A program made the translations under genes and the position numbers. The notes under the pieces were generated by a model. That model ran no database searches, was not told the origin of the DNA, and worked only from the letters and a program-made list of their open reading frames with translations. This document shows, piece after piece, positions 3,816-47,265 of a stretch of DNA of 64,000 nt. How positions within the stretch are numbered: position 1 is the first letter of the stretch; each line of letters begins with the position of its first letter. This DNA is from Clostridiales bacterium (lineage in GTDB: Bacteria; Bacillota; Clostridia; Christensenellales; Borkfalkiaceae). The stretch is taken from contig SVIP01000002.1 of assembly GCA_015069425.1 (NCBI GenBank), forward strand, positions 102,048-166,047, read 5' to 3'.

Positions 3816-5003
3816 ATGATGACTTTGCTACTACTTGTAATCTACATAACCTTTATCGGGCTAGGACTACCCGATTCTATTTTAGGCTCTGCGTGGCCGG
3901 CAATTTATATTGATTTTAATCTGCCGGTAAGTTCGCAAAGTCTTTTAACCATACTTATCTCAACTGGAACTGTTACGGCAAGCATATTTTCCGCTCGCCT
4001 AATTAATAAATTTGGAACGGGACTTTTAACTGCAATTAGCACATTGCTAAGCACCATTTGTCTACTTTGCTTTTCCTTTTCCAACTCTTTTTATTTTTTA
4101 TTGCTTTTAGCTTTCCCTTTGGGCGCAGGGGCGGGTGCAATTGACGCCGCACTAAACAACTACGTTTCCGTACATTATTCGGCTACTAAAATGAATTTCT
4201 TGCACAGTTTTTACGGTGTGGGGGTTGCACTTAGTCCGTACATAATGTCCTTTGCTTTGGCGATAGATAATAACTGGCGACAAGGTTATCGTATGGTTTT
4301 CTTTATAATGCTTGCTATATCAATTATTGCCTTTGCATCTCTTCCGCTCTGGGAAAAAGCCCAACAAAAGGATATTGAAAGTAAGAAAGAACAAAAAAAT
4401 AATTCTCTCTCGTTAATTGAAATTGCAAAAATCCCCACGATAAAATACGCTTGGATTGCTTACTTTTCAACCGTCGCTTTGGAGTTCACTTGCGGAATTT
4501 GGGGGTGTACTTATCTAGTTTCTTCAGAACTTTTATCCGAATCATTTTCCGCTAAACTCATTACCCTTTATTATATAGGTATTACTTTAGGTAGGTTTTT
4601 GTCGGGTATAGTTTCGGTTAAACTAAATAACCAACAGATTGTTGGACTTGGCTATTCAATAGTTGGCGTAGCGGTTATATTAATGCTCTTGCCCGTACCT
4701 GCAATAGTAAAAGGCGTTGCCCTTTTATTAATCGGCTTAGGAAACGGCCCCACTTTCCCCAATTTAATTTATCTCACTCCTAAATTTTACGGACAAGAAA
4801 ATTCTCAAGCAATCACAGGAACTCTTCTTGCCGTCTGCAACGTGGGAATACTGACTATTCCTCCACTATTTGGGGTTTTAGCACAAGTCTTAAGTTTAAA
4901 AATCTTTCCTTTAGTTATATTGATTTTTTACGTAATTATGGTTATAAGCACTATAATTTATCTAAAAACAGCCGAAAAAAATAGCAAAGGTATTGATTTA
5001 TAA
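3816..5003 (+). CDS. MFS transporter
   Basis: 395 aa with about 12 hydrophobic segments in 6+6 organisation around a central charged loop (QQKDIESKKEQKNN). RBS AAAGGTGA. Starts 10 nt after the previous gene. Confidence 0.7.
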   Translation: MMTLLLLVIYITFIGLGLPDSILGSAWPAIYIDFNLPVSSQSLLTILISTGTVTASIFSARLINKFGTGLLTAISTLLSTICLLCFSFSNSFYFLLLLAFPLGAGAGAIDAALNNYVSVHYSATKMNFLHSFYGVGVALSPYIMSFALAIDNNWRQGYRMVFFIMLAISIIAFASLPLWEKAQQKDIESKKEQKNNSLSLIEIAKIPTIKYAWIAYFSTVALEFTCGIWGCTYLVSSELLSESFSAKLITLYYIGITLGRFLSGIVSVKLNNQQIVGLGYSIVGVAVILMLLPVPAIVKGVALLLIGLGNGPTFPNLIYLTPKFYGQENSQAITGTLLAVCNVGILTIPPLFGVLAQVLSLKIFPLVILIFYVIMVISTIIYLKTAEKNSKGIDL

Positions 5004-5554: not shown

Positions 5555-5590
5555 AAAAGCGGGGTGAAATTATTTCACCCCGCTATTTTC
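5555..5590. terminator. Bidirectional intrinsic terminator between convergent dut and aroQ
   Basis: GCGGGGTGAAAT-T-ATTTCACCCCGC hairpin flanked by an A-run and a T-run. Confidence 0.75.
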
Positions 5591-6016
5591 TTATAAATTC
5601 ATTAAAGTGTCTATTGCGTCAAGATAGCCTTTAAAACCACGACCTGTGATTTTTTCAATGGCGATACTAGAAACAAAAGAAATTTTCCTAAATTCTTCTC
5701 GCTCGTCCACTTTTGTGATATGTACTTCAACTGTCGGGATATCAACCGCTTTTAATGCGTCTAAAATTGCAACGCTAGTGTGCGTGTACGCTCCGGGGTT
5801 AATTATTATTCCGTCGTACTTGCCGTACGCTTTTTGAATTTTCCCTACGATTGCCCCCTCGTAATTTGACTGATAACAAGTAAGTTTTACCTTTTTTTCT
5901 TTTGCGTACCCCTTAACTTGTTTAATTAGGGCGCTGTAACTTTTATCCCCGTAAAGTTCTTTTTCACGAATACCAAGCATATTTAAGTTTGGACCGTTTA
6001 TTAATAAAATTTTCAT
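5591..6016 (-). CDS. aroQ: 3-dehydroquinate dehydratase, type II
   Basis: 141 aa, MKILLINGPNLNMLGIRE..., typical type II dehydroquinase. 4-nt overlap with the upstream gene. Confidence 0.9.
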   Translation of the reverse strand: MKILLINGPNLNMLGIREKELYGDKSYSALIKQVKGYAKEKKVKLTCYQSNYEGAIVGKIQKAYGKYDGIIINPGAYTHTSVAILDALKAVDIPTVEVHITKVDEREEFRKISFVSSIAIEKITGRGFKGYLDAIDTLMNL

Positions 6017-7236
6017 AATAAATCAATAACTCCTTTAACAGTGTCCTCTAAACTTCCACCGTTATCAATAGTAAAGTCTGCAAACTTTTCATAAAGTTCT
6101 TTTCTTTCTTCAAACAATTTTTTAACCGCTGTTAGGTCTTTAGAAAGCGGTCTACCTACCGTTGAAAGTTTTTCTATCGGTCTATCAATATAGAAAATCA
6201 CACCGTTTTGCTTTAATAAAAAGTAATTTTCCGCTCTTTTAACCGCACCGCCACCAGTTGAAATGATTTTTCCAGAAAGACAGCCAAACTCTTTTATAAC
6301 TTCGGTTTCTAAACTTCTAAAATAATCTTCGCCATCATCAGAAAAAATCTCGGGTATGCTTTTACCCGCCTTTTGTTCAATTTTTTGGTCAATATCAATG
6401 CACTCCATATCAAGTAAGGCTGAAAGGTTATTTGCCACCGTACTTTTCCCCGAGCCAGGCATACCGACAAGCACTATGTTTTTAACTTCCCTTTGCAGTT
6501 TTTCTAAAACGCTTTCAATAATACCGTCGTCAAACTTATCACTTAAAAACAAGTCCATTGCGTATTTTGCTTGTGCGACAAGCATTGAAAGTCCGTTCGT
6601 GTACTTTATTCCCCTTTCTCTTGCGTTAAAAAGCAATTTTGTTAAAGATGGATTATAAATAACGTCCGCTACGCCTAAAAGATTAGGGAATCTATTTATA
6701 TCAATAGGGCAATTATCCGTTTCGGGATACATTCCAACTGGCGTTGTATTGATTATAACTTCGGTCTCTATTAAATCATAACAGTTTTGATAATTATATT
6801 CGCCATTTCTTGAAATGGTTTTAGCTGACTTTGCGCCAAGCGTTTTTGCGACAGCTAGAGCCGTGTTTCTTGTTCCGCCACTGCCTAGAATTAGAACGCA
6901 CCTATCATGAAGTTCAATCTCCGCTTTTTTAAGCATATAAATCATACCTAAAAAATCGGTATTATAGCCTATTGTTTTTCCGTTTCTTTTTACAACCGTG
7001 TTGACTGCGCCTATTGCTTTCGCACTCTCGTCAACGAGATCAAGATAGGGCATTATTTGTTGTTTATAAGGAATTGTGACGTTAAAGCCTTTATATTCAC
7101 TCTCTTTAACAAATCTTTCAAGAGCGTCGCTTTCTAGTTCGACCAAGTCATATTGATATTTAGAAAAAAGCGTATGTATTTTTTTTGAGTAACTGTGCTT
7201 TAAGGTTTTACCTATAAGCGCAAACTTTTCTTTCAT
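6013..7236 (-). CDS. aroE/aroK: Fused shikimate dehydrogenase (N-terminal) / shikimate kinase (C-terminal)
   Basis: 407 aa. The N-terminal ~250 aa look like AroE (GSGGTRNTALA Rossmann loop). The C-terminal ~160 aa carry the P-loop GMPGSGKST and a shikimate-kinase-like sequence. Confidence 0.85.
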   Translation of the reverse strand: MKEKFALIGKTLKHSYSKKIHTLFSKYQYDLVELESDALERFVKESEYKGFNVTIPYKQQIMPYLDLVDESAKAIGAVNTVVKRNGKTIGYNTDFLGMIYMLKKAEIELHDRCVLILGSGGTRNTALAVAKTLGAKSAKTISRNGEYNYQNCYDLIETEVIINTTPVGMYPETDNCPIDINRFPNLLGVADVIYNPSLTKLLFNARERGIKYTNGLSMLVAQAKYAMDLFLSDKFDDGIIESVLEKLQREVKNIVLVGMPGSGKSTVANNLSALLDMECIDIDQKIEQKAGKSIPEIFSDDGEDYFRSLETEVIKEFGCLSGKIISTGGGAVKRAENYFLLKQNGVIFYIDRPIEKLSTVGRPLSKDLTAVKKLFEERKELYEKFADFTIDNGGSLEDTVKGVIDLL

Positions 7237-8381
7237 TAAACCGTCTCCTCATACGCGCCTAAGAAAGTAAACTGCTCGGTTGAATTATCAAGTTCGCTTA
7301 AAAGGTTTTGAACGCCCTTTTCTTTTATATCACAATTAAAGTCAAAGTAGAACATAAACTCAAAACTAGAGCCGACAATAGGTCTCGATTCAAGTTTTGT
7401 CAAATTTATCCCTAAATTAGCAAACTTTGAAAGTAATTTATTCAAACTACCCGGTGAGTTTTGCGGAAGAGTGGTCATAATACTGATTTTATTTGCACCT
7501 TGATAAAATTCCATTTCTTTGGCAATCAAAATAAATCTAGTGTAGTTGTTGTCGCTGTCTTGAACGTTGGTTTCTAAAAGTTTTAAGCCGTAAAGGTCGG
7601 CACATTCTCTTGAAGATATCGCCGCAATATCACTTCTTCCACTTTCTGCAACCATCTTTGCTGAAAGGGCTGTGTTTGCACACGCTGTTATTTTAGCATT
7701 TGGAAATTGCTCAAGATATTTTTTACACTGAGAAATGGCTTGTTCGTGTGATAAAATTTCTTTGATGTCTTCTTTTTTTGCATTATGGTTAGCCACTAAA
7801 TTATGACAAATTGGCAAGCGAATACTTTTTACAATATAAAATTTATGTTCTTTCATTAAGTCGTAAACTTGATTCACCGAGCCTGCCGAACTATTTTCAA
7901 TCGGTAAAACGCCATACTTGCAAAAGCCTTTTTCTACGGCTTGGAAAACACCCTCAAAATTCTTAAAATAACTTACGTCCGCAATCTCAAATAAACGCTC
8001 TGTGGCAATCCCCGAATATGCTCCCATAACCCCTTGACACGCTACCTTTGCTTTAACGGGGAATTTTAATTCGCCTTTAGCGATTGCGTTTTTAATGTTA
8101 TCGCTAATTTCCGAATGATACTCAGCGTTTGCCGTTTGGTAGGCTCTGCTTGTTTCAAACATAGTTTCAAACACTCTTTTTAGGTATGACTTTTTATCGT
8201 CTGCCACCATATCCGTCACTCTTAAAATAATGCTCTTTTCTCTTTCTGCATCTAGCGTCGCCTTTCCGCTCTCTTTTTTTGCCTCGCTAACCTTTTCAAC
8301 GAGTTTCATTCTCTCCCCATAAAGGGTTGCGATTTGGTCGTCAATTTTATCAATATCTTGTCTAATTTTATTTAAGTCCAT
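7236..8381 (-). CDS. pheA: Bifunctional chorismate mutase / prephenate dehydratase
   Basis: 381 aa. N-terminal AroQ-class chorismate mutase helices (IDKIDDQIATLYGERMKLV), then a prephenate dehydratase domain and a C-terminal ACT-like region (ESRP motif). Confidence 0.85.
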   Translation of the reverse strand: MDLNKIRQDIDKIDDQIATLYGERMKLVEKVSEAKKESGKATLDAEREKSIILRVTDMVADDKKSYLKRVFETMFETSRAYQTANAEYHSEISDNIKNAIAKGELKFPVKAKVACQGVMGAYSGIATERLFEIADVSYFKNFEGVFQAVEKGFCKYGVLPIENSSAGSVNQVYDLMKEHKFYIVKSIRLPICHNLVANHNAKKEDIKEILSHEQAISQCKKYLEQFPNAKITACANTALSAKMVAESGRSDIAAISSRECADLYGLKLLETNVQDSDNNYTRFILIAKEMEFYQGANKISIMTTLPQNSPGSLNKLLSKFANLGINLTKLESRPIVGSSFEFMFYFDFNCDIKEKGVQNLLSELDNSTEQFTFLGAYEETV

Positions 8382-8383
8382 AT

Positions 8384-9478
8384 TTATTCTCCTTGTAAAC
8401 TATCGAAAATTGCAATCGCTGAAATTGCTTCAATCACTGGAACTGCTCTCGGCACGATACACGAATCGTGTCTTCCCTCAATTTTTATCTTAGTATTTTG
8501 TTTATTTATTAAATCCACAGTTTCCTGTTCTATACCTATGCTTGGCGTTGGTTTTACTACTACGCTAAAGGTAATCGGCATACCGTTCGCCATTCCGCCG
8601 TTTATTCCACCGTTATGGTTTGTCTTGGTTTTCACCCTTTCTCCGTCGTAATAAAAGGCGTCGTTAACCTGACTTCCGTAACTTTCGGCAAGGTCAAACC
8701 CAGTGCCAAACTCTATGCCTTTTACCGCAGGCACTGCAAACGCTAAATGTGAAATCACGCTTTCTAAACTGTCAAACATATACTCACCCGTCCCTACGGG
8801 AACACCGGTTATTACGCAATCAATCACACCTCCAACAGAATCTAAATTCTTGCTTGCGTTTTCAATCTCCTCTTTCATTTTTTCTTTAGTCGAATTATCT
8901 AATAATGGAAAATTTATATCCTCAACGATTAAATCCTTTATATCCGCAGTTAACTCTTTATAACTTTTACCTTTAACTTTTCCTATTTTAGAGATAAACG
9001 CTTGAATTTTTATTCCTTTTCTTTCTAAAATCTGTTTACAAATTCCACCTGCTATACAGATTGGAGCGGTCAATCTCCCCGAAAATTTACCACCGCCACG
9101 GTAGTCGAAATCATCACCGTACTTACTAAACCCCACAAAATCTGCGTGTGACGGACGTGGTTTCTTTTCAAGGTTTAAATAATCTTTACTGCGTTGACAA
9201 TTGTTTTCTATTACCGCCTTAAATCGTCCTGAAAATCCGTCTTTTGACAACCCTTGTACAATCTTAATTTTATCTCCCTCAATTCGTTTTGTAGAATAAG
9301 CCTCGTTTTTTGCTCGACGCCTTTCTAAAAATTCTTGAAGTTTATCTAGGTCTATATTTTCCCCGTCAAGTCCGTCAATATAAACGCCCATTTCTTGTGC
9401 GTGCGACGCACCAAAAACTTCCAAACGGAGTTTTCTTCCATTAAAAACTGAATATTGTTTATCTTTAACTGTGTTCAT
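8384..9478 (-). CDS. aroC: Chorismate synthase
   Basis: 364 aa with FGASHA, RPSHAD and GRHDSC motifs characteristic of AroC. Confidence 0.9.
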   Translation of the reverse strand: MNTVKDKQYSVFNGRKLRLEVFGASHAQEMGVYIDGLDGENIDLDKLQEFLERRRAKNEAYSTKRIEGDKIKIVQGLSKDGFSGRFKAVIENNCQRSKDYLNLEKKPRPSHADFVGFSKYGDDFDYRGGGKFSGRLTAPICIAGGICKQILERKGIKIQAFISKIGKVKGKSYKELTADIKDLIVEDINFPLLDNSTKEKMKEEIENASKNLDSVGGVIDCVITGVPVGTGEYMFDSLESVISHLAFAVPAVKGIEFGTGFDLAESYGSQVNDAFYYDGERVKTKTNHNGGINGGMANGMPITFSVVVKPTPSIGIEQETVDLINKQNTKIKIEGRHDSCIVPRAVPVIEAISAIAIFDSLQGE

Positions 9479-10676
9479 TTATCCCTCCACCGAGTTTAAC
9501 GAAATCGTCAAAAAAAGTAGGATATGATTTCTTTACTGCCTCAGCCCCAATTATTGTGGACTGCCCTTTCGCCTTAATTGCAAGAATTGCCGTTGACATT
9601 GCTATCCTATGGTCGTTAAAAGAGTCTGCAATGCCACCCGTAACTTCCCCACCATACACTGTTAAATTTTTGCCGTCGCTTTCTGCTTTAATATTGAATG
9701 CGTTTAGCATACTAATAGTGGAAACTATTCTATCACTTTCCTTTATTTTTAGTCTTTCTATATTTTTAATTATACTTTTGCCATTTGCATACGCACCCAA
9801 AACCGCCACTATTGGCACTAGGTCAGGACAATCTTTAGCATCAAAAGTAAATGCGTTTAACTCGCTTTTTCTTACGCTAATGCCGTCTTTTTCCATTTTT
9901 AAGTTTGCTCCTGCCGATTTAAGAATTTCGATTATAGCCCTATCTCCCTGTACGCTATCGGGGTTTAACCCCGTAACTGTAATATCCCCGTTTATTGCGC
10001 CAGCAACTAAAAAGAACGCTGAGTTAGACCAATCCCCCTCAGGGATTAAATAACCTAGATAGGTTTGTCCACCCTTAATCTTGTAGCCATTTTCAGTTTT
10101 ATCAATGGTAACGCCAAAGTTTTTTAATACTTCTAAGGTTATTTCAACGTATGGAGCGGAAGAAAGAGGGGTTGTTAAAACTATTTCACTATCCCCTTTT
10201 AAAATTGGCAGAGCCATAAGCAACCCAGAAATATACTGACTGCTAATATCTCCACGAAGTTCAAACTTTCCGCTAGTTAATTTGCCCGAAATTAAAATTG
10301 TGCTTCCCTTTTTAACGGTTACACCGTGACTTTCTAAAACCGAAAAAAGTTCATCGTTTGGTCTTTCCATAAGTTTTCCGTGCCCGATAAACTCATATTC
10401 GCCACCAATTACACCCGCCAACGGCAACAAAAATCGCAAAGTTGAACCAGACTCTCCGCAATCTAGAACTTTTTCACCATTTTTAAGGGCGTTTAAGCAA
10501 CTTTCCGTAACGGCCATGTCGTTAGAAGTAAAATCCTTGCAACAAGCAGATGGCAAGTTCCCCGCTAAAAAATTGCAAATGGCTATTCTGTGTGCATAAG
10601 ACTTAGATGGAATAGAAGATATTTTACCGCCAAGAAAAGATTTTTCTATTACTTTTATCAATTCAAATACCCCCAT
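9465..10676 (-). CDS. aroA: 3-phosphoshikimate 1-carboxyvinyltransferase (EPSP synthase)
   Basis: 403 aa with PSKSYAHR, GESGSTLRFL and DHRIAMS motifs. Overlaps its neighbours on both sides. Confidence 0.9.
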   Translation of the reverse strand: MGVFELIKVIEKSFLGGKISSIPSKSYAHRIAICNFLAGNLPSACCKDFTSNDMAVTESCLNALKNGEKVLDCGESGSTLRFLLPLAGVIGGEYEFIGHGKLMERPNDELFSVLESHGVTVKKGSTILISGKLTSGKFELRGDISSQYISGLLMALPILKGDSEIVLTTPLSSAPYVEITLEVLKNFGVTIDKTENGYKIKGGQTYLGYLIPEGDWSNSAFFLVAGAINGDITVTGLNPDSVQGDRAIIEILKSAGANLKMEKDGISVRKSELNAFTFDAKDCPDLVPIVAVLGAYANGKSIIKNIERLKIKESDRIVSTISMLNAFNIKAESDGKNLTVYGGEVTGGIADSFNDHRIAMSTAILAIKAKGQSTIIGAEAVKKSYPTFFDDFVKLGGGINEHS

Positions 10677-11710
10677 AATTGGTCAACAGAAATCTTATTA
10701 AGGGAGATTTTCTCTACCCCGTTTATCATAACAAGGGTTATCTTATCGCCACTTCTTTTTTTATCTGAATATGATGCTAAGCAAATTTCTTTAACCGTGT
10801 AAGGACATTCATTTTCTCCAACGCATTTATATATAACTTGTTTTATCTTTTGATATTCCTTTTCGTTTATAAGTTTATGTCTTAAAGAATTTTCCAAAAT
10901 AATATTTAGTCCCATACTAACCGCTCTACCGTGTGGTATAGTATATCGGCTAAGTTTTTCTATGCCGTGCGCTGGGGTATGCCCTAAATTTAAGTATTTT
11001 CTTATGTTTTTTTCAAACTCGTCCTTTTCCACTATTCGTCTTTTATAATCTATACAAAGATATATTAATTCTTGCATGTCATAGTCGCCCTTTTCAATAA
11101 GCGAAAAGACTTTTTTATCCAAAACGGCATATTTTGCGACTTCGCCCATACCGTCTATAAAAGTTTCTTTTGGCAAACTTTTTAGTGAATCGGTATCAAC
11201 TATTACAAGTTCCGGTTGACAAAATGCTCCGACAAGATTTTTACCGCTAGTTAAATCTATAGCTGTCTTTCCGCCAACCGAAGAGTCGATTTGCGCTAAA
11301 AGAGTAGTGGGAATTTGAATATATTTTATTCCACGAAGATAGGTAGCGCTTGCAAACCCTGCCATATCCCCCGTAACTCCACCACCGAGCGCAATTATTG
11401 CGTCCGTTCTCGTCAGTTCGTTCTCTGCCAAAAACTCTAAGATTTCACCGTAAGTTTTTAAATTTTTACTCTCTTCGCCATGTTTAAAAACAAATTTAAC
11501 TACCTTAAATCCATTATTTATTAATGAGGTACAAACCTTATTTCCGTACAGTTTATCCACCGTATCATCAGTTATTAGAGCAATTTTACAATCAGAAACA
11601 ACTTCTTTAATATAAACGCCTGCGTTTTTAATAAGCCCACTGCCGATAACTGCGAAGTAACTTTTAGAAGTTCTTATTTTTATTTTTTTTATGGAAAGAC
11701 TATTTTGCAT
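10658..11710 (-). CDS. aroB: 3-dehydroquinate synthase
   Basis: 350 aa with a GGGVTGDMAGFASATYLRGI nucleotide-binding region and an HGRAVSMG metal-site region. Confidence 0.9.
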   Translation of the reverse strand: MQNSLSIKKIKIRTSKSYFAVIGSGLIKNAGVYIKEVVSDCKIALITDDTVDKLYGNKVCTSLINNGFKVVKFVFKHGEESKNLKTYGEILEFLAENELTRTDAIIALGGGVTGDMAGFASATYLRGIKYIQIPTTLLAQIDSSVGGKTAIDLTSGKNLVGAFCQPELVIVDTDSLKSLPKETFIDGMGEVAKYAVLDKKVFSLIEKGDYDMQELIYLCIDYKRRIVEKDEFEKNIRKYLNLGHTPAHGIEKLSRYTIPHGRAVSMGLNIILENSLRHKLINEKEYQKIKQVIYKCVGENECPYTVKEICLASYSDKKRSGDKITLVMINGVEKISLNKISVDQLWGYLN

Positions 11711-12563
11711 CGTTTCCCTTACTCCTTCTCATCTTTTCGGAAATAAGTTTTTTCTCGTTTCCATCGGAAAGTAATTTTTTCATTTTATCTAGGTCTTTAT
11801 CTTTAAGTGCATTTTTATAATCTTCAAGGTTAGCAATAATACTATCGATTTCTTTAACCAAAAAATCGGAATTATCAACCGTTAATTGCGCCCACATCTC
11901 AGGGGATAGTCTTGCAACCCTTGTCATATCTCTAAAACTACCAGCGGAAAATCCCATAAACTGCTCTGCAGTTTGGCTTTTGATATAGGAACTAGAAACA
12001 AGGTGGGCTAGTTGAGAAGTAAATGCAATTATTTCGTCGTGCTTTTCTGCACTAGTAATTGCTACGCTTCCAAACCCCAAACATAAAGAGTACTCTTTAA
12101 GCCAAGATATCGTACGGAGTTCCGCTTTAACAGGTACTAAAATCATACTTGCTTTTTCAAAAAGCGTTGCCGTCGAATGGCTAACTCCTGAAAACTCTCT
12201 CCCAGCCATCGGGTGTGTGCTAATAAATTTCAAGTCGGGATAAATGCTAGAGAGTTCTTTCATTTGCCTTACCACTCTGCGTTTATTTCCACAGCCATCT
12301 AATACCAAACAACCCTTTTTAAGTTTAGGGCAGTATTCGATAAGTGCTTTTTCTAACACTTCTGGATAAAGCGAGAAGAACACAACGTCCATCTCCTTTA
12401 TATTTTCGTCCGTTAATTCCTCATGATACGCTGACAAAAGTCTCCCTGCGAGCATTGCCTTTTTATCCACGTCAAAAGCATAAACTTGGTCGTTAGTCTT
12501 TTTTACTATCGTTCTGCCTAGCGACCCACCGATTAACCCTAAACCAATTATAGCAATTTTCAT
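11700..12563 (-). CDS. tyrA: Prephenate dehydrogenase
   Basis: 287 aa with the N-terminal GLGLIGGS Rossmann motif and HPMAG motif. Confidence 0.85.
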   Translation of the reverse strand: MKIAIIGLGLIGGSLGRTIVKKTNDQVYAFDVDKKAMLAGRLLSAYHEELTDENIKEMDVVFFSLYPEVLEKALIEYCPKLKKGCLVLDGCGNKRRVVRQMKELSSIYPDLKFISTHPMAGREFSGVSHSTATLFEKASMILVPVKAELRTISWLKEYSLCLGFGSVAITSAEKHDEIIAFTSQLAHLVSSSYIKSQTAEQFMGFSAGSFRDMTRVARLSPEMWAQLTVDNSDFLVKEIDSIIANLEDYKNALKDKDLDKMKKLLSDGNEKKLISEKMRRSKGNDAK

Positions 12564-12574
12564 TTTTATCTCTT

Positions 12575-13588
12575 TTAATTGTATTTTTTATTTACTATAG
12601 GTAACATTGTTTTTACCTTATCCATAAGCCCTTTAAACTGTACGGGATTAAGTGATTGCGCCCCATCGCAAAGTGCACGTTGCGGATCGTTATGAACTTC
12701 TATGATAAGACCGTCAGCACCTGCACCGACAGATGCAAGCGACATCGGTTCAACTAATCTTGCCACACCGGTTGAATGACTTGGGTCAATAATTATCGGC
12801 AAGTGCGATTTTTCCTTTAATACTGGTACAGCAGAAATATCCAAAGTATTTCTAGTCATTGTTTCAAAGGTTCTTATTCCTCTTTCACAAAGAATAACTT
12901 GGCAATCCCCCTCCGCCATAATGTATTCCGCACTCATTAAAAGTTCATTTAATGTATTTGCAAGTCCTCTTTTTAATAAAATAGGCTTGCACGTTTTTCC
13001 AACTTCTTTTAATAGTTCAAAGTTTTGCATATTTCTAGCACCAATTTGAATAATGTCTACGTCCTTAAATAAATCCAAATGGCTTACGCTCAATAATTCG
13101 GTTACGATAGGAAGTCCCGTTTCCTTTTTTGCCTTTAATAAAAGTTCAATACCCGTGTCTTTAAGACCTTGGAAAGCATAAGGAGAAGTTCTAGGCTTAA
13201 ACGCACCACCACGAAGCAAGGTTGCCCCCGCCTCTTTAACTGCTTTTGCAACTTCTATAATTTGAGATTCAGATTCAACCGAGCAAGGTCCTGCAATAAC
13301 GGTAAAATTATCACCGCCGATTTTATGACCGCCCACCTCAATAACCGTGTCTAAAGGATGAAATTTTCTATTCGCATTTTTATACGGCTCTTGAACTCGT
13401 TGAACTTGTTCAACGATATCTAAGGAAGAAATAAGGTCTATATCTACTCTACTTGTGTCACCAACTAAGCCTAAAACCGTAGAGTGTTCACCACGACTTT
13501 CGTGAACGGTAAGCCCTAAATCGTTTATCCATTCAACTAAATTTTGGTACTGTTTTTCTTCGCAGTTGTTTTTTACAACGATAATCAT
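12575..13588 (-). CDS. aroF: 3-deoxy-7-phosphoheptulonate (DAHP) synthase, type I-beta with N-terminal regulatory domain
   Basis: 337 aa. An N-terminal ~70-aa ferredoxin-like extension is followed by a KDO8P/DAHP synthase barrel (IAGPCSVES, LLRGGAFKPRTSPY, DPSH). First gene of the operon. Confidence 0.85.
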   Translation of the reverse strand: MIIVVKNNCEEKQYQNLVEWINDLGLTVHESRGEHSTVLGLVGDTSRVDIDLISSLDIVEQVQRVQEPYKNANRKFHPLDTVIEVGGHKIGGDNFTVIAGPCSVESESQIIEVAKAVKEAGATLLRGGAFKPRTSPYAFQGLKDTGIELLLKAKKETGLPIVTELLSVSHLDLFKDVDIIQIGARNMQNFELLKEVGKTCKPILLKRGLANTLNELLMSAEYIMAEGDCQVILCERGIRTFETMTRNTLDISAVPVLKEKSHLPIIIDPSHSTGVARLVEPMSLASVGAGADGLIIEVHNDPQRALCDGAQSLNPVQFKGLMDKVKTMLPIVNKKYN

Positions 13589-13652
13589 AATAATACTTCC
13601 TATATAAAATAATGTTTGATTTTTAATAATAATTTTTAAGTTATTTCTAATG

Positions 13653-13686
13653 AAAAAAGGGTTTTGCAGTAATTACTACAAAACCC
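13653..13686 (-). terminator. Intrinsic terminator inside the aro leader (attenuator)
   Basis: Minus-strand GGGTTTTGTAGT-AATT-ACTGCAAAACCC followed by TTTTTT, ending about 65 nt before the aroF ATG. Confidence 0.75.
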
Positions 13687-13724
13687 TAACCGTTTTTTGA
13701 ACGCAAAAACAATCCGTATAGTAA

Positions 13725-13790
13725 TTACCAACGCGATAGACAAGACTTGCTATAAAAGTAAAAATAAAAGTACGAATTGTTAATTTTCAT
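13725..13790 (-). CDS. Leader peptide MKINNSYFYFYFYSKSCLSRW (aromatic-codon-rich)
   Basis: AGGAG, 6 nt, then ATG. The 21 codons include seven consecutive Tyr/Phe codons and a terminal Trp. It lies between a consensus promoter and a terminator upstream of the aro operon. Too short for the ORF track. Confidence 0.6.
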   Translation of the reverse strand: MKINNSYFYFYFYSKSCLSRW

Positions 13791-13813
13791 TTTATTCTCC
13801 TAAAAACAATTTT

Positions 13814-13842
13814 ATTATACGCCTATAAAAAAACACTGTCAA
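13814..13842 (-). promoter_or_regulatory. Consensus sigma-A promoter of the aro leader (TTGACA, 17 nt, TATAAT)
   Basis: Read on the minus strand: TTGACA at 13842-13837 and TATAAT at 13819-13814. Confidence 0.7.
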
Positions 13843-13868
13843 GTATTTTTCTAAATAAATTAAATTTT

Positions 13869-14663
13869 TTACAATTTATAAACGCTATTAAAATTGTGAC
13901 TATTAATTATCACTCCAATCACTAAACCAATCATTAAAATATACACCCAAAGAAGAAAAACTATTATTCCAGCAAGACTTCCGTAAAAGGCGTTATAGGA
14001 ATTAAAAAATCTTAAATACAGAGTAAATCCAATAGTTCCCAACACTATAATAAATAAAGAGATAAGCGCACCTATTGCTAAATGAAAAAATTTTAATTTA
14101 ACGGGAGAAATAAACCTATTTAATATAATGATTAAGAAATAACAAAAAGTAATAATAACCAAAAGAGTTAAGGTCATACTTAAAATGGGGTTTTTATTAA
14201 ACACTGACGCCTTATTAATTAAATTACTTCCAAAAGCGACCAAAAATGCAACCGCTAAAAAAATTGAAAATAAGCACGCAAGCCCAAGTATTGCCCACGC
14301 CCGACGAAACAACCCTCGTTTTGAATTGGATTTTTTACCGTAAATATGATCACCGTCTTTAGACATTTGATTAAGCAGAGTTGAGCCTGAAAATATTACG
14401 GTAAACAAAAAAATAACCGTTGCTCCGCTTGATGCTTTTTCTGCGGTTGAAACGATTGCCTCTCCCGCCTCTCTGTACTCTATCGGAAGTCTTGCAACTA
14501 ACTCAAGCGACAAATCCACTCCAAAAACACCGAAAGCGGTCACCATTAAAAAAGCAAGTGGAAGAACGGACGTTAAAAAAAAGAATACCCACGCCCCCGC
14601 AACAGTAGTAAGCCGTTTTTGTGAAAAAAAGTGAAAAAAATCAATCATTCTATTTTTTTTCAT
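13869..14663 (-). CDS. YihY/BrkB-family membrane protein
   Basis: 264 aa, polytopic. N-terminus FFSQKRLTTVAGAWVFFFLTSVLPLAFL is typical of the YihY family. Confidence 0.65.
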   Translation of the reverse strand: MKKNRMIDFFHFFSQKRLTTVAGAWVFFFLTSVLPLAFLMVTAFGVFGVDLSLELVARLPIEYREAGEAIVSTAEKASSGATVIFLFTVIFSGSTLLNQMSKDGDHIYGKKSNSKRGLFRRAWAILGLACLFSIFLAVAFLVAFGSNLINKASVFNKNPILSMTLTLLVIITFCYFLIIILNRFISPVKLKFFHLAIGALISLFIIVLGTIGFTLYLRFFNSYNAFYGSLAGIIVFLLWVYILMIGLVIGVIINSHNFNSVYKL

Positions 14664-14934: not shown

Positions 14935-14990
14935 TTGACAGGATACAGCAAATTGTTGTATAATTTGGCACATACAACAAATTGCTGTTA
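14935..14990 (+). promoter_or_regulatory. Promoter (TTGACA, 18 nt, TATAAT) overlapped by two 17-19 bp pseudo-palindromic operator-like sites
   Basis: TTGACA at 14935-14940 and TATAAT at 14959-14964. ATACAGCAAATTGTTGTAT (14943-14961) and ATACAACAAATTGCTGT (14972-14988) are near-reverse-complements of each other. Confidence 0.55.
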
Positions 14991-15005
14991 AACAAAGGAG
15001 TATTT

Positions 15006-15539
15006 ATGAAAGAAAACGTTTTAAGGGTTAAAAATCCCGTACCAATTACAGTATTTAAAATTATTGTATTAACATCAATTATTATATCAGTGATTTTAAT
15101 TCCTTTAATGTTTGTAAATTTTAGTGATAAATACGAAAAAATACAAACATTTGAAACAAAACAAGAAGTTTATAATTCTAAAGGTTATTCCGCCGCAAAG
15201 CAGTCGGTTGAAAAAATATTAGAAAAGGAAACAATTAATAATATAGAATCTATTTCTTGGTTGCTTCAAGGTCGAAAAGCAACAGATGAAATAGTATATT
15301 TAAAAATTACTTATGACTCTAATCAAACAATTAATACTAAATATTTTTGTTATTTAACATATTGGTCTAGTTTGTTTCATTATTATACATACGATTTAGA
15401 GGAAATAACAAATAAACAATACGAAAAAGAACTTATGTCTTGGCTAACAATTAGTGACGAAGAAAAAAGTTTATTAGCAAGAGAAAAAAGTTACGATGAA
15501 TTTGCAATTTCTGTTATTTTAGAGGAGGCTAAAAAATAA
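15006..15539 (+). CDS. Hypothetical signal-anchored protein
   Basis: RBS AAAGGAG, 7 nt, then ATG at 15006 (the ORF-track TTG at 14982 is rejected). One N-terminal TM helix followed by a ~130-aa soluble domain. No recognisable motif. Confidence 0.6.
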   Translation: MKENVLRVKNPVPITVFKIIVLTSIIISVILIPLMFVNFSDKYEKIQTFETKQEVYNSKGYSAAKQSVEKILEKETINNIESISWLLQGRKATDEIVYLKITYDSNQTINTKYFCYLTYWSSLFHYYTYDLEEITNKQYEKELMSWLTISDEEKSLLAREKSYDEFAISVILEEAKK

Positions 15540-46973: not shown

Positions 46974-47099
46974 TTTTTAAGTGTTAGAAACGAGTTAGGC
47001 AAGGCTCGACAAGGCGTGGGGCGAGATAGACCGTCTGGTCATCTAAATCCACGACGCAGTCAGTAAACGATGCATAACGAAGTTTATAACACTTAAAAA
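46974..47099 (+). repeat. Structured intergenic element, copy D2 (in mgtE leader, intact closing helix)
   Basis: TTTTTAAGTGTTAGAAAC (46974-46991) pairs with GTTTATAACACTTAAAAA (47082-47099), 17/18. Shares TTAGAAACGAG, CAAGGCGTG, ACGCAG and GAAGTTTATAA blocks with copies B and C; copy A keeps diverged versions of these blocks (e.g. TTAGATGCGAG, CAAGGCACG, ACACAG). Confidence 0.7.
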
Positions 47100-47265
47100 A
47101 AGACCGGTAGGTAAGGCTACCTTAGGGATACGGACTGCTGCCGCAAAATAGTGGAGACACTATGAGATGGTTGAACAGACCACGTCGAAAACAAGGCGTG
47201 ATTTAATGCAGTTTCACTGCCCTACGGTGCTAAAGCCAGAATGGTTGCCCGAGATTTCGGTGTAG
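47100..47265 (+). promoter_or_regulatory. M-box (ykoK-type) Mg2+ riboswitch aptamer
   Basis: GGTAGGTAAGGCT, GCTGCTGCC, ATGGTTGAACAG, AAGGCGTGATTTAATGCAG and GTGCTAAAGCC blocks in canonical order. P1 is ACCG/CGGT. Lies directly upstream of mgtE. Confidence 0.85.

Follow-up and report, generated by a model that had tools for sequence, protein, structure and literature searches.

A 64,000-nucleotide (nt) stretch of contig SVIP01000002.1 from a Clostridiales bacterium (assembly GCA_015069425.1), called the window below, carries an aromatic amino acid biosynthesis operon on its minus strand. The subject of this analysis is the short leader in front of aroF, the first gene of that operon. The leader region was read directly on the minus strand from 13950 to 13500, and it contains, in this order, a promoter, a Shine-Dalgarno (SD) sequence with a start codon, a short open reading frame (ORF), a terminator and aroF. 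The predicted promoter is of the sigma-70 type (13814–13842, minus strand) and consists of a -35 box TTGACA (13842–13837), a 17-nt spacer and a -10 box TATAAT (13819–13814). It agrees with the consensus at 12/12 positions, one of two such matches that a consensus scan returned in 10.5 kb, and it would place a 5′ leader within the operon transcript.

The SD sequence AGGAG (13797–13801, minus strand) is followed by 6 nt and the ATG at 13790. The leader ORF, MKINNSYFYFYFYSKSCLSRW*, comprises 21 codons and a TAA stop codon at 13727–13725 (13725–13790, minus strand), and with its SD sequence and start codon it appears to be translatable. Codons Tyr7 to Tyr13 (13752–13772, minus strand) read UAC UUU UAU UUU UAC UUU UAU, that is, seven consecutive codons alternating between Tyr and Phe, and the operon behind them contains both tyrA and pheA. 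Gene callers left this ORF uncalled on every contig inspected for it. A scan for other leader-type ORFs across the window gave none that was convincing, and the aro leader was the sole one of such quality.

An intrinsic terminator (13653–13687, minus strand) lies between the leader ORF and aroF. It has a 13-bp stem (13687–13675 with 13670–13658), an AAUU loop and a U6 tract (13658–13653), with a folding energy of -17.7 kcal/mol. The stem-loop is AGGGUUUUGUAGU-AAUU-ACUGCAAAACCCU (13687–13658), and the first T of the T6 tract closes the stem. From the end of the terminator to the aroF ATG (13588) there are 64 nt, and this spacer carries its own ribosome-binding site.

The operon as a whole comprises eight contiguous or overlapping ORFs on the minus strand (5591–13588), which were named by their NCBIfam assignments. 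These are aroF for DAHP synthase (12575–13588), tyrA for prephenate dehydrogenase (11700–12563), aroB for 3-dehydroquinate synthase (10658–11710), aroA for EPSP synthase (9465–10676), aroC for chorismate synthase (8384–9478), pheA for chorismate mutase fused to prephenate dehydratase (7236–8381), aroE-aroK for shikimate dehydrogenase fused to shikimate kinase (6013–7236), and aroQ for type II dehydroquinase (5591–6016), all on the minus strand. The aroE-aroK fusion is a single ORF of 407 residues. All seven shikimate steps are thus encoded together with pheA and tyrA, nine functions in all, and a strong bidirectional terminator with 12 pairs, 7 of them G-C, closes the operon at 5558–5584. An earlier interpretation of this DNA, made from its letters without database searches (the sequence-only reading), had reported the promoter, the AGGAG-6 nt-ATG start, the 21-codon ORF, the hairpin with its U run and the gene content of the operon. 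Direct reading found the first three at the same positions, the hairpin was confirmed with the dimensions given above, and the NCBIfam assignments agree with the gene content.

Conservation of the leader was analyzed in a genome set of 80 loci whose AroF relatives are 63–86% identical to the AroF of the window. Nearly all of these loci come from uncultured Clostridia labelled Christensenellaceae, Oscillospiraceae, Lachnospiraceae, Acutalibacteraceae and similar; the one cultured species is Angelakisella massiliensis (Marseille-P3217, locus L033), with the leader MNKFAFAAEYYFTFIFTFAYFSKGSLRLAAKGASC. The screen accepted ORFs within 300 nt upstream of aroF that start with ATG, have 8–45 codons and hold at least five Phe or Tyr in seven residues. 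Such an ORF was present on the sense strand of 55/79 loci and on the antisense strand of 0/79, and dinucleotide-preserving shuffles predicted 0.9. At a looser threshold of at least four Phe or Tyr in seven residues, 65 genome loci had a candidate ORF, and in 63 of the 65 an intrinsic terminator also lies between its stop codon and aroF. These terminators range from -8 to -28 kcal/mol and are found 10–80 nt after the stop codon and 14–130 nt before aroF. By a crude criterion, most of the 65 candidate ORFs have an SD motif in front of them, and some lack one. In an independent metagenome set of 80 loci, 72 of which had enough upstream sequence, the ORF was found in 51/72 loci, and a terminator accompanied it in 51/51. 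The sequence-only reading had expected short Tyr/Phe ORFs in front of aroF orthologues, and both sets bear this out.

The gene upstream of the leader varies from locus to locus and is divergent in 17/54 loci, so the ORF and the terminator go with aroF rather than with its neighbour. Altogether at least 105 distinct leaders were collected from Christensenellales-, Oscillospirales- and Lachnospirales-type genomes and from metagenomes. Both Tyr and Phe occur in the densest 7-residue window of 99/105 distinct leaders, with three Tyr-only and three Phe-only. The order of the two residues differs among leaders (YFYFYFY, YYFYNFYFF, AEYFYFSF, YYYYYYF and others), and each residue is encoded by both of its synonymous codons (TAC 207, TAT 187, TTT 446 and TTC 106). 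The leaders are 14–43 residues long, and their sequence outside the Tyr/Phe run is highly variable. Since both residues are kept while their order varies and both synonymous codons are used, the leaders indicate that selection acts on the decoded amino acid identity and not on a fixed RNA motif.

Several side observations concern subsets of these loci. Oscillospirales-type leaders (L020, L023, L026, L028, L036, L052, L059, L068 and others) share FAAEY before the run and KSxSDLCC after it, and their terminators share the core CCGCAGUGA...CACUGCGG; such sharing suggests that the RNA itself is conserved within the ORF. Four loci labelled as non-Clostridia (L025, L037, L060 and L072; Bacteroidaceae, Treponema, Spirochaetales and Victivallaceae) have a close AroF and no convincing leader ORF, which could reflect gene transfer minus the leader or mis-binning.

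To describe how the leader might work, the nascent RNA of the window was folded up to 13671, before the 3′ arm of the terminator exists, with the ribosome footprint held single-stranded. Four segments were delimited on the minus strand. Segment 1 (13771–13781; AACAAUUCGUA, codons 4–7) is the 5′ strand of a predicted helix, P1, in which it pairs with 13718–13708 over 11 bp (duplex -10.8 kcal/mol). Segment 2 (13705–13728) includes the stop codon, the motif GUAAUUACUAUACGG and the 3′ strand of P1 (13718–13708), and it forms the 5′ half of the predicted antiterminator. Segment 3 (13669–13697) is an A-rich stretch plus the 5′ arm and loop of the terminator and can pair with segment 2 or with segment 4, which is the 3′ arm of the terminator (13670–13658). 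Because the 3′ strand of P1 lies wholly within segment 2, each of the pairings 1:2, 2:3 and 3:4 excludes the next, as in the trp attenuator.

The predicted pairing depended on the position of the ribosome. Without a ribosome, segment 1 pairs with 13718–13708 to form P1. A ribosome with its A site on any of the codons Tyr7 to Tyr11 covers segment 1, and in this stalled fold segment 2 pairs with segment 3 through two stacked helices. The outer helix joins 13728/25–13717 with 13680–13669/72 (9–12 bp, -11.3 kcal/mol), and the inner helix joins 13716–13705 with 13697–13686 (11 bp). Together they occupy the base (13687–13686), the upper half and the loop of the terminator 5′ arm. A ribosome at the stop codon covers 13742–13714 and occludes segment 2, leaving segment 3 for segment 4. 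The probability of the outer helix was 0.80–0.88 for ribosomes stalled at Tyr7 to Tyr11 and 0.00 at the stop codon, and this result held under four footprint assumptions. A ribosome-dependent antiterminator that excludes the terminator is therefore predicted by the co-transcriptional model, as the sequence-only reading had anticipated, but with other partners. That reading had proposed pairing between ACCUA (13722–13718) and UAGGG; the bases there read ACUAU, so this pairing is not in the sequence, and the model instead pairs 13728–13705 with 13697–13669.

Two variations in this region are recorded as side observations. Same-species metagenome contigs (L164 and L165) carry a leader identical to that of the window except for one single-nucleotide polymorphism, G13715A, which breaks the C13774-G13715 pair of P1 and also lies within the inner antiterminator helix. 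The +1 frame of the window, entered from the U-rich Tyr/Phe run (13772–13677, minus strand), stays open to a UAG at 13679–13677 in the terminator 5′ arm, which is probably incidental. Frameshifting into the +1 frame at hungry codons, and thereby into the terminator arm, was considered as a mechanism and rejected as a family feature, with this frame open in just 29/108 loci.

The same behavior was analyzed across loci. Before the 3′ arm exists, 39 of the 63 genome loci showed more pairing of the terminator 5′ arm to upstream RNA when the ribosome was placed on the Phe/Tyr codons, and 6 when it was placed at the stop codon (p = 9e-8). The stop codon is nearer to the terminator, a possible geometric artefact, and the linker was therefore shuffled as a control. 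The observed mean difference between stall and stop was 0.163, compared to 0.025 for shuffled linkers (12 replicate sets, range -0.013 to 0.064; p = 1.3e-6). Among 108 non-redundant loci, the best duplex between linker and 5′ arm averaged -14.8 kcal/mol versus -10.9 kcal/mol in shuffles (p = 1e-17) and beat 95% of the shuffles in 49/108 loci. Its 5′ strand falls within the footprint of a terminating ribosome in 77/108 loci. Complementarity of the linker to the 5′ arm and a position under the terminating ribosome, both as modelled here, are the two properties required of the antiterminator of an attenuator.

The leader type of the window itself is shared only with three close relatives, L001, L002 and L081. 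Comparable promoters occupy the same site 5′ of the leaders in L002 (TTGACA-17-TATAAT) and L081 (TTGACA-17-TAAAAT). The four-sequence alignment of the window with these relatives conserves the terminator, with 2 compensatory pairs, and the relatives keep both the segment 2 motif GUAAUUACUAUACGG and the core GUAAUUACU(A)UACGG...UUUUGCG. When the alignment was truncated, its consensus fold was the antiterminator helix UAAUUACU:AGUAAUUA. The ORFs of the relatives end about 16 nt earlier, with NSKV*, NILF* and NSLC*. The window has lost their stop codon (13736–13727 versus alignment columns 66–76) and gained five extra codons that end inside the conserved GUAAUUACU element, so its stop codon now lies directly on the antiterminator strand. 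By this comparison the tail SKSCLSRW, including the terminal Trp, is lineage-specific. The sequence-only reading had drawn attention to this Trp, which is indeed present in the ORF; as a third sensed residue it was rejected, being part of a lineage-specific extension and with Trp found in 19/105 leaders. Two further features of L001 were noted: about 300 nt without a clear ORF (approximately 1270–1570) separate its leader terminator from aroF, versus 64 nt in the window, and its upstream neighbour is a PfkB-like kinase, the window homologue of which ends at about 17178.

Known RNA families were searched with Rfam 15 at gathering thresholds over the whole window. No T-box and no leader family was found, and Phe_leader, the leu/phe leader and the other curated amino acid leader families gave no covariance-model match. 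The only family present is an M-box (Mg2+) riboswitch aptamer elsewhere in the window, at 47096–47256 on the plus strand (96.5 bits versus a gathering score of 44). A permissive scan of 13400–14000 (E up to 10) returned four matches, none of which concerned a leader family and each of which fell far short of the gathering score of its own family. The T-box leader (RF00230) had no match in the window, in 13400–14000 or upstream of aroF in 38 related loci (18 leaderless and 20 leader-bearing), in agreement with the sequence-only reading, which had seen no T-box core. The sole T-box in the related loci (93.6 bits) is at 4759–5003 of L074, downstream of a leaderless second aroF copy; L074 and L057 derive from one metagenome-assembled genome (CAJJZS01) with two aroF copies, one with a Phe/Tyr leader and terminator and the other without. 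A TRAP-type leader would show nine to eleven (G/U)AG triplets at 2–3 nt spacing, and 13807–13687 contains four scattered UAG and no GAG array; the repeats in this region are the UAY/UUU codons.

From the sequence elements and the modelled folds, we consider it probable that the element is a Tyr/Phe-responsive, ribosome-mediated (leader-peptide) transcription attenuator of the aro operon, as the sequence-only reading proposed, and the more than 100 related loci and the ribosome-position folding support this. Transcription would start at the consensus promoter, and a ribosome would translate the 21-codon leader behind RNA polymerase. When Tyr-tRNA and Phe-tRNA are plentiful, the ribosome would reach the UAA at 13727–13725 and cover segment 2 (13728–13705); segment 3 would then pair with segment 4 into the 13-bp terminator, and transcription would end at about 13653, before aroF. 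When either charged tRNA is scarce, the A site would stall within the seven Tyr/Phe codons (13772–13752). The stalled ribosome would cover segment 1, block P1 and leave segment 2 free to pair with 13697–13669 before the terminator 3′ arm is made. With both ends of the terminator 5′ arm, base and top, engaged in this pairing, the polymerase would continue into aroF. With no ribosome present, P1 (segments 1 and 2) would compete with the antiterminator. The analysis shows the elements, how they are conserved and which alternative pairings are predicted; stalling, its kinetics and the response to Tyr and Phe are our inference. In this model, the attenuator most likely ties expression of the aro/pheA/tyrA operon, with its nine functions, to how much charged tRNA-Tyr and tRNA-Phe is available.

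Several results weigh against this attenuator model. At equilibrium the terminator wins with a probability of 0.97 in every ribosome state, so control must be kinetic and co-transcriptional, as in classical attenuators; the equilibrium probability was uninformative about ribosome position and was replaced by the co-transcriptional model. The outer helix has a probability of 0.59 even without a ribosome, and a clean default-off state is not predicted. The antiterminator of the window is A/U-rich, its duplex of -8.6 kcal/mol does not stand out from shuffles (p = 0.11), and the arm-pairing metric of the window is no better than that of shuffles. With four sequences, covariation in the antiterminator is almost nil. 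In L001, L002 and L081 the terminating ribosome would barely reach the antiterminator strand, their stop codon lying about 16 nt further upstream, and P1 is not conserved in these three loci. A role for P1 as a conserved anti-antiterminator is accordingly unsupported, and the helix may be lineage-specific. We regard the specific helices modelled for the window as having about an even chance of being correct.

Other explanations of the leader were weighed against the same evidence. The attenuator could be real and sense one of the two amino acids, with the alternation of Tyr and Phe partly incidental. Phe is somewhat more common than Tyr in the leaders (18.6% versus 13.3% of residues), and the aroR-aroF attenuator of Corynebacterium glutamicum answered Phe limitation and not Tyr availability, according to the summary in PMC11802643. 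However, almost all leaders keep both residues in their densest window, the operon encodes tyrA as well as pheA, and the first regulatory codon in the window is Tyr, which makes sensing of a single residue unlikely. It is quite improbable that the ORF acts without termination control, either by encoding a small functional hydrophobic peptide or as an upstream ORF (uORF) adjusting how aroF is translated or how stable the mRNA is; in this case the hairpin would only stabilise or insulate. In favour of this view, the peptides are hydrophobic, motifs outside the run persist in some subfamilies (FAAEY, SDLCC), and the terminator is predicted at equilibrium whatever the ribosome position. Set against this, peptide length and sequence vary widely apart from the Tyr/Phe run, nearly all loci have a hairpin with a U tract after the ORF, in every case before aroF, and the linker exceeds shuffles by far both in its complementarity to the 5′ arm and in its placement under the terminating ribosome. 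In the window, translational coupling is also unlikely, given the 64 nt between the end of the terminator and aroF and an SD sequence that belongs to aroF itself.

T-boxes and TRAP are the usual regulators of aromatic genes in Firmicutes, and the UAY-UUU repeats have a 6-nt period. A translation-independent RNA switch was weighed, whether a T-box, a site for TRAP or another protein on the U-rich repeats, or a riboswitch, with the ORF as a by-product of composition. This we judge highly improbable: no family reached threshold in the window, in the permissive leader scan or in the 38 related loci, and conservation extends to the start codon, SD sequence and reading frame but not to the nucleotides of the run. 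Such ORFs are, moreover, essentially absent from the antisense strand and from shuffles. The same enrichment is overwhelming against a chance ORF in A/T-rich DNA whose hairpin would terminate the yihY-like gene upstream (13869–14663), which is on the same strand. A perfect promoter separates that gene from the hairpin, and the ORF and terminator stay with aroF while the gene upstream changes from locus to locus and is sometimes divergent. With varying neighbours and an intervening promoter, the hairpin was rejected as the terminator of the upstream gene, and this explanation retains hardly any probability and is effectively refuted. As a side observation, the other perfect 12/12 promoter of the scan (TTGACA-18-TATAAT, 14935–14964, plus strand) lies just 5′ of an ORF at 14982–15539 (plus strand) that diverges from the yihY-like gene.

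Leader-peptide attenuation is usually presented as a trait of Proteobacteria and Actinobacteria, and Firmicutes are associated with T-boxes, TRAP and riboswitches. Precedents for the attenuator proposed here proved nearer than the sequence-only reading had thought, with Phe/Tyr aroF leaders known in C. glutamicum (aroR) and predicted in Acholeplasma (uORFC-13-1). The leader shares with trpL, pheL (Rfam Phe_leader) and pheM the tandem cognate codons, the four RNA segments pairing 1:2, 2:3 and 3:4, and a terminator before biosynthetic genes. It differs from them in belonging to another phylum, in showing no sequence or covariance-model similarity, and in interleaving codons for two amino acids, whereas those leaders sense one. 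The Lactococcus leu/phe leader, an Rfam family, and the His leaders of Bacillus hisS/hisZ are likewise Firmicutes attenuators where a T-box would be expected, but they concern other amino acids, genes and lineages, and the window has no Rfam match to such a leader. Naville and Gautheret (2010; PMC2965389) reported for His, in Bacillus hisS/hisZ, that ordinary leader peptides can replace T-boxes in Firmicutes.

The aroR leader peptide upstream of C. glutamicum aroF is the only experimentally studied aroF leader that we found and the closest functional precedent. Mentz et al. (2013; PMC4046766) drew attention to its Phe-Tyr-Phe motif, and its attenuation is reported to respond to Phe limitation and not to Tyr limitation (Neshat et al. 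2014, cited in the summaries of PMC11802643 and PMC7356990). Both systems have a short ORF with Phe/Tyr codons directly upstream of the DAHP synthase gene aroF, with ribosome-mediated attenuation reported there and proposed here. C. glutamicum, however, belongs to Actinobacteria and not Clostridia, and it has a Phe-Tyr-Phe triplet in place of seven alternating codons, the two being likened by description and not by sequence. Its operon is described in the summary of PMC11802643 only as containing aroF, whereas the operon here includes the seven shikimate steps, pheA and tyrA. In phylogenetic terms the nearest precedent is the uORFC-13-1 motif (Brewer et al. 2021; PMC8632094), a predicted uORF whose 24 representatives, found in Acholeplasma and in environmental sequences without assignment, all lie upstream of aroF. 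It comprises promoter-like boxes, a ribosome-binding site, a start codon and a U-rich run that encodes one or more Phe, and an intrinsic terminator comes directly after it (PMC8632094). Compared by description only, it resembles the present leader in the aroF context, the uORF with a terminator and the low-G+C Gram-positive lineage, but Tyr is not mentioned in its description. Some of its environmental members could belong to the Clostridia Tyr/Phe leader family.

No description of a Tyr/Phe aro leader in Clostridia was found in a literature search that left out most subscription journals. The mechanism is classical, and the large Clostridia family of Tyr/Phe aroF leaders appears undescribed. 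As to the wider claim, that the window leader is one of a large, undescribed family of dual Tyr/Phe-sensing attenuators that is absent from Rfam and takes, in gut and rumen Clostridia, the regulatory place in front of aroF that belongs to T-boxes in other Firmicutes, we find the arguments for and against evenly balanced.

What makes the finding interesting is more how widespread the leader is than how it works: in gut and rumen Clostridia, aroF is preceded by more than 100 distinct leaders with Tyr and Phe codons. If confirmed, the family would fill a gap in RNA and small-ORF annotation, where gene callers and Rfam both overlook the leader now. It would also offer a natural case of one leader integrating two amino acids through interleaved codons, and a compact Tyr/Phe-responsive part for engineering anaerobes. 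For the biology of these bacteria, confirmation would explain how the output of aromatic amino acids is set and would bear on metabolite exchange between host and microbe. If true, classical attenuation would be a major control of the common aromatic pathway in Clostridia and not a proteobacterial or actinobacterial speciality.

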